This document shows, in pieces, positions 20,025 to 26,514 of a stretch of 32,000 bases of DNA. How positions within the stretch are numbered: the stretch's first letter is position 1; the number at the start of each line of letters is the position of its first letter. The translations under genes were made by a program, and so were the position numbers. Under the pieces are notes generated by a model. The model saw only the letters and a list, made by a program, of their open reading frames with translations, did not search any database and was not told the DNA's origin. This stretch comes from Candidatus Saccharimonadota bacterium (GTDB lineage: Bacteria > Patescibacteriota > Saccharimonadia > Saccharimonadales > UBA4665), in contig CP025011.1 of NCBI GenBank assembly GCA_002952755.1, positions 360,001 through 392,000 of the forward strand. Direction: 5' to 3'.

Positions 20025-20143
20025 GGTCAGACCCCCAAGCTAGCACTCCATCTCGTTTTGACCTCTATCGCCGTTAATCTTCTTTTATCTTTTACATAAT
20101 TAAGTGCCTTTAAGGTGTGGAATTCGTTTTTTTTCTAAACAGG

Positions 20144-20192
20144 ATCTGTAGCAGATATACAGATGCTTCAAAATTGTGGAGTATCTGTATAT
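20144..20192. promoter_or_regulatory. Cluster of four CAGAT/ATCTG pentamers, including a 10-bp perfect inverted repeat (candidate operator or RNA switch)
   Basis: ATCTG 20144-20148, CAGAT 20152-20156, CAGAT 20160-20164, ATCTG 20183-20187. ATATACAGAT (20155-20164) is the exact reverse complement of ATCTGTATAT (20183-20192). The cluster lies 130-175 nt upstream of the first ATPase-cluster gene. Confidence 0.3.
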
Positions 20193-20319
20193 GGTCGTCG
20201 CCAGACGTCTATCCGTCAATTAAAAGAATCGGTACACGCATAACGCACCTGCGGTATGGCGGGGCCGTTTTGTCTACTCTAGCTACGTTTTTTCATAAAA
20301 CCGCTATACTGATAGAGAG

Positions 20320-21138
20320 ATGAAACATAAGCGGATCTTGCGTGGTGCAATCATAGGTATTGCATTGTTGACAATGGGCATCGGGGCTGGCGTATCCGCG
20401 CAGAATGTCACTCAAGGGTACAAGCCGAGCGGCGATTTGCAAAATGGTATGATTGTGCGCTTTAAGCCGGGTGAGCCGGGTACGGTTGAGGCGCTAGATC
20501 AGAAGAATGAGCTGAGCATGCTGGGCATTACGGTTGCTTCATCGGATTCACCCGTTTCGCTGTCCGATCCTAATCAGTCGCAGATTTTCGTCGCGACCTA
20601 TGGTGAGTACGACACATTGGTAAGTACCCAGAACGGGCCGATCAAAGCAGGCGATCGTATCTCTATCTCATCAGTCAACGGCGTAGGTATGAAGGCTGAC
20701 GATCAGCATCGGGTGATACTGGGTAAAGCAATACAGAACTTTGCCGATAGCTCCAATGCCGAAGAGCACATCAAGCTGGGGGGCGGCCAGACAGTGGCGG
20801 TTGGCCGTATTGTAGTGGACGTTGGCGTTGCCCGTAATCCTGCGTATATTGGCGACATCACTCCCGGAGTGCCGGTATTTTTGGCGAAAGCGGCGCGCGC
20901 AGTAAGCGGTAGGTCGGTTACTGCACTGAGGATATATGCTGGGCTTGGCGTACTTGTTTTGGCGTTGATTATTGCAGGTATCATTCTGTTTGGCGGCGCG
21001 CGCAGCGGCATGAATGCGGTGGGGCGTAACCCGTTGGCTAAAAAGTCGATCTTCCGGAGCATGGTTACGGTGGTGCTTATGGCTTTAATTGTTGTGGTGT
21101 TGGGTATATTTGCGTTATATTTATTACTGAAGATTTAA
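20320..21138 (+). CDS. Secreted-domain protein with a C-terminal two-helix hairpin resembling an ATP synthase c subunit but lacking the carboxylate
   Basis: Signal peptide MKHKRILRGAIIGIALLTMGIGAGVSA-QN, then about 170 aa of hydrophilic domain, then TM (AGLGVLVLALIIAGIILFGG), loop ARSGMNAVGRNPLAKK, and TM (SIFRSMVTVVLMALIVVVLGIFALYLLLKI). Neither helix contains Asp or Glu. Confidence 0.7.
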   Translation: MKHKRILRGAIIGIALLTMGIGAGVSAQNVTQGYKPSGDLQNGMIVRFKPGEPGTVEALDQKNELSMLGITVASSDSPVSLSDPNQSQIFVATYGEYDTLVSTQNGPIKAGDRISISSVNGVGMKADDQHRVILGKAIQNFADSSNAEEHIKLGGGQTVAVGRIVVDVGVARNPAYIGDITPGVPVFLAKAARAVSGRSVTALRIYAGLGVLVLALIIAGIILFGGARSGMNAVGRNPLAKKSIFRSMVTVVLMALIVVVLGIFALYLLLKI

Positions 21139-24033: not shown

Positions 24034-24887
24034 GCCGTTTACAAGAAGTTGCCGAGCAGCAGATTGCCATGAATACTATTCAGAACCTGACGGGTGTGTT
24101 CGAGGGCTTGGCCAGCATGCGCATCGCCGCTGTCAAAAATCAAGTACAGGAATCGCAAGCCTTTTTTAGAGAGATCTGGCATATCTATCAGCAGCTGCGT
24201 GTCGACAGCTTGTTCCGCTTTGGGCGAACCAATCAGGATGACATCATCAAGAAGCAACTGTTTATCGTGATTACGGCCGAAGGTGGTTTTGGCGGTGATA
24301 TCGACCAACGCCTTATCAAAATGATGCTGGCTGATTTTAATCCCGACAAGCAAGATATTATCGTCATTGGGCACCACGGCGCCTTGCTACTCATTCAGCA
24401 GCACGTCAGTTTCAAGAAATATTTTACGCTGCCCTCGCGCGACAAAAATATCAACGTCAGGCCGCTCGTAGACGAAGTGCGCCGCTACGAAAGCACGGCA
24501 GTCTTCTATCAAACTTATGTGTCGCTGATGGTGCAAGAGGGCAAGCGTATTGAGCTCCAAAGTGCGGTTGCCAGCCAGGGAATGGCGGTAGCGGACAAGG
24601 CATCGGATGAAGTTATTAGTGAAGAAACGTATATTTTTGAGCCCTCAACCTACGACGTTGTTGCCCACCTGGAAAGCTCCATGACCGAAATTGCCCTCAG
24701 CCAGGTGATCCTTGACTCTAAATTAGCGCAGTATGCTGCCCGCTTTCGGGCGATGAGTATGGCGAAAGATAGGGCAAACGATTTGGTCGATGAGCTGCGC
24801 CTCACCTTCAACCGCACCAAACGCCATATCCAGGACGAGCGCTTAAAAGAAATGATTAACGGCATACGCGTAGGGAGTAAGTCATGA
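24030..24887 (+). CDS. atpG: F-type ATPase gamma subunit
   Basis: ATGA overlap with atpA. N-terminal helix ([25 protein letters not shown]) and C-terminal helix ([21 protein letters not shown]) match the gamma coiled-coil pattern. Confidence 0.8.
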
Positions 24888-26191
24888 ATCAGGGTGTTGT
24901 CCGGGTTATCAAAGACCTGACGGTGATCGTCGAGTTTGACGATCTGGTTCCCGACATTCATGAGCTGGTAGTTGTCGACCAGCTAGGCACGCAGTTGTTA
25001 GTGGACAGTCTCGAAGAAGGTGGCCGGGCCGTTTGCCTGATCATCCGCACCGATTTCCGCATTCAAAAAGGCATGACGGTAACTCCTACCGGCAAGAGCA
25101 TCGAGATTCCGGTAGGTGACAAGATGATCGGCCGGGTGGTAGACGCCCTCGGTGCGCCCATCGACGGTATCCCGCCGGTCGATGACAGCGACATGCAGCA
25201 CCGGAGCATTTTCACGCTGCCCGAGCGCGGTGGTACGGCCAAAATCAGCAAGCCGGAAATCCTTGAGACGGGTATTAAGGTGCTGGATTTCTTCGCCCCC
25301 TTCGTCAAAGGGCGCAAGATCGGCATCGTCGGTGGTGCCGGTGTAGGCAAGACAGTGCTCACTATGGAGATGATCAACAACGTTGCCAAGCAGGGCGGGG
25401 GCTTGAGCTTCTTTGCCGGCATTGGTGAGCGTATCCGTGAAGGGCACGAACTCTACGACACGCTCAAAAACACTGGCGACATTCTAAAAAGCACCTGTAT
25501 GTTCTTTGGGCAGATGAATGAAAACCCTGTGCAGCGTTCACTGATCGCCCTCAGCGCCGTAACCCTGGCCGAATATTTCCGAGATGAGCAAAAGAAGGAC
25601 ATCCTGTTTTTTGCCGACAACATGTACCGCTACATCCAGGCGCGCAACGAAGTCGCCACCATGATTGGCCAAGTCCCGAGCGAAGGTGGCTACGAGCCGA
25701 CTATCTTTACCGATGTCAAAACGCTGCAAGACCGCCTCACTTCGAACGCCAATGGCTCGATCACTGCGGTGCAGACCATTTACGTGCCGGCTGATGACAC
25801 CTCCGACCCCGCGGTGCAGATGATCCAGCACGAGCTCGACTCAATTATTATTTTAAGCCGCGCCGTAGCCGAGCAAGGTATCCGTCCAGCCGTTGACCTT
25901 ATCCACACTACCAGTTCACTGCTTACCCCTGAAGTGGTGGGCGATCGCCATTACTTGCTCAGCGTGCAGGTGCAGGAGCTATTGCAGAAGTATGAGATGC
26001 TCAAACCGATTATTGCCATCATTGGCGAGACGGAATTATCTCCCGCCGACCGAGCTGATTACGCTAAGGCCAAAAAACTTATCGAGTACTTCACCCAGAA
26101 TATGAACGTTATGGAAAGCATGACCGGCAAAAAAGGCGAATACGTCAAGCGTGACGACATGCTCAAAGGCATTGAAGAAATCATCGTATGA
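24884..26191 (+). CDS. atpD: F-type ATPase beta subunit (short, 435 aa)
   Basis: ATGA overlap with atpG. P-loop [34 protein letters not shown]. The DELSEED position reads ETELSPAD, and the protein ends about 27 aa earlier than typical beta subunits. Confidence 0.9.
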
Positions 26192-26514
26192 TCGAAGAGC
26201 ACACTGCGGCCAGCGAAGAGGTTGCCCAAGCCAAACAGGCGATGGCTGCTAGCAAAGAGGGCAAGCCAACCATGCACATTAAGGTGTATTCGCCCTTCAA
26301 GACGTATTACGACGAGACCAGCTACAGCATTTCTGCAGTCAACGCTACCGGCCCATTTGATATCTTGCCGCACCACCACAACTTTATGACACTATTAAGC
26401 CCTTGCGTACTGCTTATCCGCCCACTCACCGGCCGCGCAGAACAGCGCATACGCATCAGCGGCGGCCTGATGCATGTCAAGGCCGACAAAGTGACGATAT
26501 TTTTAGATATTTAA
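26188..26514 (+). CDS. atpC: F-type ATPase epsilon subunit, beta-sandwich domain only
   Basis: ATGA overlap with atpD. From [15 protein letters not shown]...[16 protein letters not shown]...[19 protein letters not shown] it matches the epsilon N-terminal domain. There are no C-terminal helices. An alternative start at ATG 26272 is preceded by AAAGAGGG. Confidence 0.75.

Follow-up and report, generated by a model that had tools for sequence, protein, structure and literature searches.

The closest known analogue of the gene cluster described here is the F1-like X0 ATPase of mycoplasmas, which has so far been described as mycoplasma-specific. This Type 3 ATPase (MSC_0618-0624 / MMCAP2_0575-0581) has measured activity and serves the surface system MIB-MIP (Béven et al., 2012, PMC3369863; Berlureau et al., 2026, PMC12994834). 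The cluster shares with it a set of seven genes, divergent versions of alpha, beta, gamma and epsilon, the lack of an a subunit and a genuine F1Fo operon alongside, in a genome-reduced and host-dependent bacterium, and both are thought to be ATPases serving a cell-surface function. In architecture the membrane partners also look alike, each apparently combining a signal peptide with a large domain outside the cell and a pair of transmembrane helices at the C-terminus (PMC12994834). Contrary to Type 3, the cluster contains b-like and delta/OSCP-like stalk genes, follows a different gene order and lacks both the 12-transmembrane 'protein 1' and the small cytoplasmic 'protein 2', and its alpha and beta stay below the Type 3 MSC_0619 / MSC_0618 models (250 versus 520 and 368 versus 570 bits). 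Its two-helix partner is derived from subunit c, an origin that is unreported for mycoplasma MSC_0620, and in the loci with inspected gene tables no MIB-MIP annotation lay within 10 kb of the cluster.

The Type 2 G1-ATPase of the Mycoplasma mobile gliding motor (MMOB1660/1670; PMC8406192, PMC11864180) employs F1-derived alpha and beta for mechanical work and not for ion coupling, as is proposed below for the cluster, but it consists of chains of cytoplasmic dimers and has neither a b/delta stalk nor a c-like ring, and the cluster reaches only 331 versus 600 and 329 versus 850 bits with its models. The N-ATPase (alternate F1Fo; TIGR03305/03324) is likewise a second F-type operon beside the canonical one. 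However, it has an a subunit, which the cluster lacks, together with a Na+-binding c, AtpQ, AtpR and a different gene order, and the scores against TIGR03305/03324/03323 were 387 versus 752, 314 versus 750 and 24 versus 282 bits. With the FliI/SctN model TIGR01026 the cluster scores 168-198 bits versus a cut-off of 379.5, and it encodes two distinct alpha/beta paralogues, not a homohexamer. A cluster of another type (L087, GCA_050874105.1) also carries a divergent alpha/gamma/beta beside a carboxylate-less c with the same A-V-G-R-N-P loop, but this c is free-standing (81 aa, above the PF00137 gathering score) and lies among proteins of 524, 1434 and 3453 aa, and no OSCP-like gene was detected there; the L087 beta is 61% identical to the beta of a Mycoplasmatales MAG. 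Compared with canonical F1Fo, finally, the alpha, beta, gamma, epsilon, delta and c-hairpin are homologous, and the b-like stalk, the b-to-epsilon order and the R-N/Q-P loop are shared, whereas the a subunit is missing, the c-hairpin is without its carboxylate and fused to a secreted domain, and epsilon lacks the helical domain.

Gene layout and conservation

The cluster lies within a window of 32,000 nucleotides (the whole stretch that was analysed), positions 360001-392000 of the genome of 'Candidatus Teamsevenus rhizospherense' (Saccharibacteria). Published gene coordinates correspond to window coordinates plus 360,000, and the exact window proteins are found on the 1,450,269-bp contig. Seven co-directional ORFs encode, in order, X272 (a protein of 272 aa), b-like, delta-like, alpha, gamma, beta and epsilon:

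20025..20319, + strand: upstream non-coding region between the aminotransferase stop (20024) and ATG 20320; presumed promoter/leader
20320..21138, + strand: X272 (272 aa), predicted secreted domain plus C-terminal subunit-c-like hairpin
21139..21310, + strand: X272/b-like spacer of 172 nt, with inverted repeat and strong RNA fold
21311..21928, + strand: b-like stalk subunit (205 aa; ATG 21311), by architecture, position and weak family matches
21909..22493, + strand: delta/OSCP-like subunit (194 aa from ATG 21909; 191 aa from GTG 21918), PF00213 in orthologues
22495..24033, + strand: F1-like alpha (512 aa), PF00006
24030..24887, + strand: F1-like gamma (285 aa), PF00231
24884..26191, + strand: F1-like beta (435 aa), PF00006
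26188..26514, + strand: epsilon-like subunit (108 aa), PF02823

The genes, order and junctions given in the initial annotation are borne out by the ORF coordinates: the alpha ATG (22495) follows the delta-like stop after a gap of 1 nt, ATGA start/stop overlaps occur at 24030, 24884 and 26188, and the b-like and delta-like genes overlap by 20 nt from ATG 21909, or by 11 nt from GTG 21918, the start chosen by the public gene caller, an 11-nt overlap being usual in relatives. The start of the cluster had been placed at 20117, which has to be corrected; the 68-aa ORF at 20117-20323 is not hydrophobic, has no family match and is skipped by the public gene caller, and it was dropped as a gene. A 58-aa ORF in the X272/b spacer was also dropped, being neither hydrophobic nor matched by any family and lying in a spacer that is absent from most relatives. 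Among the non-coding features, a palindrome of 19+19 nt (20155-20192) is located inside the region upstream of X272, where a consensus promoter scan called no site (20025..20319); neither promoter nor terminator scans did better than chance. Rfam returned two tRNAs only and no match to the X272/b spacer. This spacer measures 172 nt versus only ~30 nt in most relatives, contains a perfect 16-nt inverted repeat (21158-21173 / 21263-21278), folds as RNA at -70.1 kcal/mol (z-score -4.96) and has the look of a palindromic element inserted there or of an RNA structure within the operon.

The assignment of the F1-like genes gained strong family matches for alpha (PF00006, E 1e-65), gamma (PF00231, E 3e-29, full length), beta (PF00006, E 5e-63) and epsilon (PF02823, E 2.4e-13 over residues 29-106). 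All four score under the curated (equivalog) NCBIfam cut-offs, with 385 versus 484 bits for TIGR00962 atpA, 98 versus 194 for TIGR01146, 421 versus 463 for TIGR01039 atpD and 46 versus 67 for TIGR01216. KO scores were 442 for alpha, 96 ('questionable') for gamma and 521 for beta, versus 775, 318 and 875 for the canonical subunits of the same genome. Beta is ~30 aa shorter than its canonical counterpart, the C-terminal tail of alpha is rich in Lys/Glu/Asp/Pro, and epsilon, which does not match PF00401, consists of the beta-sandwich domain only, its C-terminal helical domain being missing. The Walker A motif and arginine finger (R352) of alpha are invariant across 71 sequences, as are Walker A (G150-T157), E182/R183 and D245 of beta across 65 sequences. 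Read from their sequences, alpha and beta appear to be a divergent yet catalytically intact alpha3beta3-type pair.

A comparison of synteny across relatives, as suggested in the initial annotation, showed that the cluster is one conserved unit. The X272 gene is present in at least 194 Saccharimonadia species genomes, and the seven-gene order is fixed in this class, holding in every sufficiently long locus among 80 GTDB species loci; it is also found in L002, L004 and L088 and, identically, in three Microgenomatia-like contigs (L086, L091, L092). The genes flanking the cluster vary between lineages. At the median, orthologues are 74% (beta), 66% (alpha) and 63% (gamma) identical to the window protein. 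Ultra-small CPR bacteria commonly carry such a cluster, but not all do, as the cultivated Saccharibacterium Southlakia apparently has the canonical operon only.

The membrane partner X272 and the stalk genes

X272 occupies the place in the cluster where atpB-atpE would sit. Its predicted signal peptide (residues 1-27), assigned by inspection and from the invariant Ala-Gln site (A27-Q28), is followed by a beta-rich outside domain (~28-180), then by a linker helix and, at the C-terminus, by a hairpin of two helices (~200-272). Foldseek searches with the AlphaFold2 model (pLDDT 82) matched the hairpin to c subunits, with a target-normalised TM-score of up to 0.88 and an rmsd of 1.3 Å, and the outside domain to phage decoration, cement and preneck-appendage proteins (PDB E 7.5e-4; BFVD E 1.6e-9, 43 hits <=1e-3). 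The N-terminus of subunit c faces outside, and given this orientation and the model, the signal peptide and outside domain of X272 agree with c topology.

Profile comparison matched the hairpin to PDB c subunits (E 3.8e-7) and, by hhalign, to canonical c (94%, E 1.4e-7). The homology became clear only once the Microgenomatia-like branch was added, and it persists without the L087 c; with a narrow hairpin alignment confined to Saccharimonadia, hhalign against seven canonical c sequences matched the loop alone, and the full-length X272 profile found no c subunit among PDB sequences. The hairpin keeps an invariant G-R-N-P loop, corresponding to the cytoplasmic R-N-P loop of c, and two family members are named 'ATP synthase membrane subunit c' in the JGI annotation. 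Asp and Glu are absent from the hairpin helices of all 42 Saccharimonadia and all 45 Microgenomatia-like members (87/87), and E. coli cAsp61 aligns with X272 Leu256, a hydrophobic residue at the position of the ion-binding carboxylate. The C-terminal hairpin of X272 (~75 residues) is a subunit c homologue that has lost this carboxylate. The initial claim that the cluster has no c subunit is therefore right for a free-standing PF00137 gene, of which the scanned window ORFs have none, and wrong for the last 75 residues of X272. The absence of an a subunit was upheld, since PF00119 had no match among the 27 substantial window ORFs scanned, and neither a polytopic gene within the cluster nor a linked a-like gene was found in any of >80 related loci.

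For the stalk, both earlier assignments were kept on different grounds. The delta-like protein had no family match as a single sequence, but 24 out of 28 orthologues did match PF00213 (OSCP; best E 1.1e-4), the counterpart in the Microgenomatia-like L086 exceeds the Pfam gathering score (26.6 versus 22.3), and the best PDB matches of the family profile were OSCP/delta C-terminal domains (E ~0.02). The b-like protein, which has a single transmembrane helix at its N-terminus and then a long helical stretch, is situated between X272 and delta in every locus, and 67 of its 205 positions are at least 97% invariant (74 sequences). It matched NCBIfam atpF with E 0.002, and PF00430 was matched by 7 of 23 orthologues (best E 0.0057); its family profile returned no b subunit from the PDB, coiled-coil noise only. 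The b identity, drawn from architecture, position and these weak matches, is weak at the sequence level.

Function of the cluster and competing explanations

Split Fo/F1 loci occur in other bacteria (one example is L090; the beta P0157 is canonical and non-CPR), and the initial annotation had allowed that the cluster might simply be a split operon, the sole F1 and stalk of its genome working with a distant atpB-atpE. The proposed genome-wide check did find a canonical a and c in T. rhizospherense, and these sit in a second, complete atp cluster at 1,008,673-1,015,596, ~620 kb away (genes _1098 to _1107 in a supplementary table of Starr et al., 2018, PMC6031116). Because this operon (a, 264 aa; c, 72 aa; b; delta; alpha, 517 aa; gamma; beta, 465 aa; epsilon) carries its own F1 genes, the window cluster is not the only F1 set in the published annotation and the split operon is refuted; the far lower scores of the window subunits (beta 521 versus 875, gamma 96 versus 318) and the possession of a c-derived gene point the same way, and we give this explanation practically no credence. 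The cluster is a second, divergent F-type-derived set, separate from the canonical ATP synthase, and its coexistence with a canonical operon has been shown in one genome, that of T. rhizospherense. A third F1 set in this genome was considered and rejected. It arose from K02111, K02112, K02114 and K02115 each being listed three times in the Starr et al. table, the extra genes belonging to a second sheet for genome 47_87, whose set (MKSO01000001.1, genes 169-174) is an orthologue of the window cluster; looking with P0137 for a paralogue inside the genome likewise yielded no more than a further branch of the same family. It is equally hard to believe that the cluster is a decaying, functionless duplicate of the atp operon. 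The scores do fall under the family cut-offs, and epsilon and beta are cut short compared with the canonical subunits, but the seven ORFs are intact, their order does not change over at least 65 species loci and two CPR classes, the catalytic residues are invariant, the overlapping start/stop codons are retained, and no frequent frameshifts or single-gene losses were seen across relatives.

The reading that we favour, with modest confidence, is that an ATP-hydrolysing F1 on a b/delta stalk drives an ion-blind c-like ring with surface domains, the output being mechanical. X272 hairpins would assemble into a c-like ring, to which gamma and epsilon would dock via the conserved loop, and the N-terminal domains would form a crown on the outer membrane face. 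Such a ring, without an a subunit and without the carboxylate, should transport neither protons nor sodium; lacking both, the complex would neither synthesise ATP nor pump ions, from which we infer an ATP hydrolase. With b and delta holding the catalytic head, the ring would pass torque or strain on to the domains exposed at the surface, and the output would be mechanical work done there, by which something external to the cell is moved, reset or remodelled. A ring protein without its proton-binding residue and with a cell-surface domain suggests that ATP is probably spent on surface work and not made. The idea of a CPR-type analogue of F1-like X0, put forward in the initial annotation, is supported, the cluster being a second F1-like set, divergent and conserved, whose membrane partner is not of the Fo type. 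Without an a subunit, the anchoring of the b-like helix against the ring is in doubt and the complex could be locked, not freely rotating.

Locking is central to a different and rather unlikely explanation, a membrane-anchored, non-rotating ATPase in which the stalk locks F1 to the ring and ATP-driven strain serves either to switch conformation or to power an unfoldase/export motor, on the pattern of FliI-FliH-FliJ. In its favour are the missing a subunit, which leaves stator and rotor unseparated, and a b-like protein unusually conserved along its length, which suggests specific contacts; moreover, FliH is b/delta-like and FliJ gamma-like (PMC3665681). However, alpha and beta are far from the FliI/SctN models (~170-200 bits versus cut-offs of 380-620), gamma is full length, epsilon keeps its ring-binding domain, and export-gate genes are not linked to the cluster in the loci compared. 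Ion coupling, as ATPase or synthase, could also have survived if X272 mixed with canonical c, borrowed the canonical a or had a non-carboxylate ion site. The cell does have a canonical a subunit, and hybrid c-rings with carboxylate-less subunits have a precedent in Acetobacterium woodii c1 (the 4bem_J match of the hairpin profile), but with a membrane Asp or Glu in 0/87 members of both family branches, no linked a-like gene at any of the >80 loci and a crown of 18-kDa domains, one per subunit, that would probably clash with the outside a/c interface, this seems highly improbable.

Significance for CPR bacteria

No prior description of such a system in CPR was found in the literature. In public databases the cluster genes are annotated as ordinary 'F0F1 ATP synthase' subunits and X272 as hypothetical, and such labels mean that reconstructions of Saccharibacteria and CPR metabolism probably count the cluster toward 'F-type ATPase completeness', and hence chemiosmotic capacity. 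If the mechanical reading is right, the cluster is uninformative on ATP synthesis and represents an ATP-consuming surface machine in organisms whose biology centres on interactions with hosts at the cell surface. It would also be a natural experiment, in which a c-ring has lost the carboxylate and the a subunit while the peripheral stalk is kept, bearing on ways in which rotor, stator and membrane parts come apart and are put to new use, and it would offer a simpler relative-by-design for comparison with the enigmatic mycoplasma F1-like X0. A wider proposal, which we advance tentatively, as possible more than probable, is a hitherto unrecognised CPR rotary class in which F1 and stalk turn or twist a c-ring that has changed from an ion turbine to a transmembrane drive shaft with a phage-decoration-like crown, an ATP-powered surface rotor for episymbiosis that, with mycoplasma F1-like X0 and the L087-type clusters, would define a wide grouping, convergent or ancient, of 'proton-blind' F-type motors. 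In episymbiosis such a rotor might serve to attach or detach the cell, to move it on the host or to remodel the envelope.

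The seven-gene cluster and the canonical ATP synthase operon

The window belongs to 'Candidatus Teamsevenus rhizospherense' YM_S32, a member of the Saccharibacteria whose genome is complete (Starr et al. 2018, PMC6031116, supplementary file 2). The genes around the cluster are consistent with a CPR genome of small size: metG, tatD, a class-V aminotransferase, an ABC/FtsX pair, and glycosyl transferases and hydrolases. The seven co-directional ORFs of the initial annotation, which encode a 272-aa protein (hereafter X272), b-like, delta-like, alpha, gamma, beta and epsilon, were re-found in the sequence with the junctions claimed for them. 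The published gene table places alpha at 382495-384033, gamma at 384030-384887, beta at 384884-386191 and epsilon at 386188-386514, that is, at the window coordinates plus 360,000 (PMC6031116). The b-like gene starts at ATG 21311 and overlaps the delta-like gene by 20 nt if the latter begins at ATG 21909, or by 11 nt if it begins at GTG 21918, the start that a public gene caller chose and that relatives usually have.

It had been suggested that the cluster might simply be one half of a split operon. This reading is refuted by a complete canonical operon that the same genome encodes elsewhere (minus strand, 1,008,673-1,015,596; PMC6031116). The a and c genes of the genome belong to that operon, which has its own F1, and the window cluster is a second set.

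Products of the canonical operon (minus strand; PMC6031116)
a, 264 aa, K02108
c, 72 aa
b, 178 aa
delta, 132 aa
alpha, 517 aa
gamma, 290 aa
beta, 465 aa
epsilon, 143 aa
possible AtpI, guessed from position, 90 aa, membrane protein without KO match

The genes ndh and nuoL lie near this operon, and its KO scores exceed those of the window cluster for beta (875 versus 521), alpha (775 versus 442), gamma (318 versus 96) and epsilon (118 versus 58) (PMC6031116). A third F1 set in T. rhizospherense was rejected, since the second sheet of the table covers another Saccharibacterium, 47_87, whose set (MKSO01000001.1, genes 169-174) is an orthologue of the window cluster. Canonical a-c-b-delta-alpha-gamma-beta-epsilon operons are reported for rhodopsin-bearing Saccharibacteria and for Southlakia epibionticum, where every component is dispensable; a second F1 set was not found in the Southlakia gene table.

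The identity of alpha, gamma, beta and epsilon is unmistakable (PF00006, PF00231 and PF02823 matches), and all four stay under the NCBIfam equivalog cut-offs (score/cut-off in bits: alpha 385/484, gamma 98/194, beta 421/463, epsilon 46/67). The F1 subunits also score far off the N-ATPase, mycoplasma Type 2/Type 3, FliI/SctN and V/A-type models. Epsilon consists of the beta-sandwich domain alone and beta is about 30 residues short of the usual length. The C-terminus of alpha (window 23900-24033) is a low-complexity tail rich in Lys, Glu, Asp and Pro, whose length differs widely among orthologues, the whole alpha ranging from 475 to 721 aa. As a single sequence, the delta-like protein of the window gave no family match; PF00213 (OSCP) was matched by 24 of 28 orthologues, one distant orthologue scored above the Pfam gathering score, and the best PDB matches of the family profile were a dozen OSCP/delta chains, aligned over the C-terminal domain. 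The b-like protein may be a stalk subunit: it has a single transmembrane helix at the N-terminus and a long helix behind it, always occupies the same place in the cluster, and gives some weak matches; a profile search of the PDB found nothing. Its conservation is unusual for a stalk subunit, with 67 of 205 positions at least 97% invariant in 74 sequences and a near-invariant block, F-R-E-E-L-R-N-R-G-R-L-H-F-E-K-I, which hints at specific contacts along the length of the protein.

When GTDB species were scanned, each represented by one genome, an X272 relative proved to be encoded in at least 194 genomes, the best 80 of which are nearly all Saccharibacteria MAGs. Two of the related loci, L088 and L061, have relatives from habitats that are host-associated or widely sampled. 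All seven genes occur in the same order in every related locus that is long enough, and no additional alpha/beta-type gene was found within 10 kb of the cluster in these loci. Synteny of the flanking genes is limited to close relatives, which marks the seven-gene block itself as the unit. Among orthologues, beta has an invariant Walker A, catalytic Glu/Arg and Walker B, and alpha an invariant Walker A and arginine finger. Judged from its sequence, the F1-like head, with gamma and epsilon, is catalytically intact, and it is accompanied by a delta/OSCP-like and b-like stalk. The whole set is under strong purifying selection.

Median identity of orthologues to the window protein
beta, 74%
alpha, 66%
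b-like, 64%
gamma, 63%
epsilon, 60%
delta-like, 48%
X272, 45%

An exhaustive search with the window beta returned as nearest neighbours (38-49% identity) other low-scoring betas, none of them canonical. Three of these, L086, L091 and L092, lie on low-GC CPR contigs and have the identical seven-gene architecture.

Cluster positions in the three Microgenomatia-like loci
L086, 3183-9781
L091, 2746-8644
L092, 2753-8658

Their X-protein (250-290 aa) carries outside-domain motifs as in X272 and a hairpin with I-E-A-I-G-R-N-P-L-A that lacks a carboxylate; named members of the L086 family are labelled Daviesbacteria, Blackburnbacteria or 'Patescibacteria group'. The ribosomal genes rplK-rplA (L11-L1) adjoin the cluster in L086 and L091. 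A further beta neighbour belongs to a different atypical cluster (L087; NCBI GCA_050874105.1, 3199-10890), in which beta shares 61% identity with its counterpart in a Mycoplasmatales MAG. Here, a free-standing c of 81 aa passes PF00137, lacks the membrane carboxylate and shares the loop A-V-G-R-N-P with X272-type hairpins. Its gene adjoins those of divergent alpha, gamma and beta, and the surrounding genes encode large proteins (524, 1434 and 3453 aa).

X272 and its subunit c-derived hairpin

The X272 family comprises more than 500 homologues, and every named one is labelled Saccharimonadales or Patescibacteria. In their alignment, the N-terminus is basic-hydrophobic and closes with an Ala-Gln that does not vary, the beta-rich middle is variable, and the highly conserved C-terminus consists of two hydrophobic helices joined via an invariant G-R-N-P loop. 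Fold searches divided the AlphaFold2 model (pLDDT 82) into two parts. In the model, the hairpin has the fold of F-type c subunits such as Chloroflexus 9itt_I (TM-score 0.88, rmsd 1.3 Å), and the outside domain is predicted to fold like phage decoration, cement, preneck-appendage and tail N-terminal domains (PDB, E 7.5e-4; BFVD, 43 matches at E 1e-3 or lower, the best 1.6e-9, rmsd 2.3-2.7 Å), in agreement with weak Pfam matches to XM1_gp53 and Phage_cement.

The first sequence comparisons with subunit c were weak (NCBIfam E 0.003, 7 of 42 members, hhalign confined to the loop), and solid homology emerged when the family was widened. A hairpin profile of 24 sequences retrieved c subunits from the PDB at E 3.8e-7 (27 of 28 matches), and hhalign aligned the X272-type hairpin with canonical c over 74 columns (94% probability, E 1.4e-7; 89% and 2.2e-6 with the single free-standing c removed from the profile). 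JGI annotation names two family members 'ATP synthase membrane subunit c'. In the hhalign alignment, E. coli cAsp61 stands opposite X272 Leu256, and neither hairpin helix contains an Asp or Glu in any of the 42 Saccharimonadia or 45 Microgenomatia-like members. The N-terminus of subunit c faces outside, and its R-Q/N-P loop is cytoplasmic and touches gamma and epsilon. The topology of X272, with its N-terminal domain secreted, is consistent with this orientation.

The initial annotation had reported neither an a nor a c gene. PF00119 and a free-standing PF00137 were indeed absent from the window ORFs scanned, and the lack of an a subunit stands, but a c-like module is present: the c-derived hairpin of X272, without ion site and joined to a secreted domain, is the piece that had been missed. 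The anatomy of the cluster is more interesting than was proposed.

Relation to the mycoplasma F1-like X0 ATPase and proposed mechanism

The nearest concept is the F1-like X0 ATPase of mycoplasmas, encoded by a seven-gene cluster and present in addition to a real F1Fo. Its alpha, beta, gamma and epsilon are divergent, it has no a subunit, and one partner protein combines a signal peptide and an outside domain with two transmembrane helices at the C-terminus. The complex is active as an ATPase, and the MIB-MIP antibody-cleavage system needs it (PMC3369863; PMC12994834). In contrast, the window cluster fails the models of that family, lacks its 12-transmembrane and small cytoplasmic proteins, retains b and delta, and has no MIB-MIP linkage. 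The earlier suggestion of a CPR-type analogue holds for a second, divergent F1-like set beside a canonical operon, which by analogy would resemble F1-like X0 in its working and is not a member of the family. No description of the cluster in Saccharibacteria, Patescibacteria or CPR was found in the limited body of full-text literature searched.

The cluster, which co-occurs with a genuine ATP synthase in T. rhizospherense, very probably encodes a second, non-ion-coupled F-type-derived complex. How it might work can be proposed more tentatively, with slightly less than even confidence, as a rotor acting on the surface. X272 hairpins would assemble as a ring whose conserved loop holds gamma and epsilon. 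Without half-channels or carboxylate such a ring would not translocate ions, and hence the enzyme would be an ATP hydrolase. Torque or strain would be relayed across the membrane to the outside domains, arranged as a crown, with the envelope, an adhesin or a host surface as possible targets. A serious alternative to free rotation is a locked, strain-generating assembly, because without an a subunit the b-like helix has no evident anchor.

Non-coding elements and other genes of the window

Folding of the spacer between the X272 and b-like genes, which contains a perfect inverted repeat of 16 nt, gives a long hairpin (-70 kcal/mol, z-score -4.96).

Spacer features
21139-21310, X272/b-like spacer, 172 nt
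21158-21173 and 21263-21278, repeat arms

Since the equivalent spacer is just about 30 nt in most relatives, it has the appearance of a palindromic insertion or of an RNA structure within the operon; the 58-aa ORF that a public gene caller placed in it is probably not a gene. Within the 295-nt region 5' of X272, a 19+19-nt palindrome (20155-20192; 84% complementary, arms abutting) may be an operator of the cluster.

Between epsilon and a 337-aa minus-strand gene sit two genes without Pfam match (26552-30565), of 386 aa (minus strand) and 926 aa (plus strand). These may be a lineage-specific insertion, because in two related loci (L002, L004) a 341-aa minus-strand gene, by size a possible counterpart of the 337-aa gene, follows the cluster almost directly. 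Elsewhere in the window, a 36-nt inverted repeat (6959-7036; whole segment 6788-7036), probably a terminator, comes after tRNA-Cys and tRNA-Leu. A 345-aa TTG ORF on the opposite strand (6151-7188), which overlaps both tRNAs and has no family match, is probably not a gene. A GH6 and a GH16 hydrolase lie at 7206-12406 together with a 1141-aa protein that contains two GT2 cellulose-synthase-like domains; the three constitute a cluster for beta-glucan synthesis and turnover.
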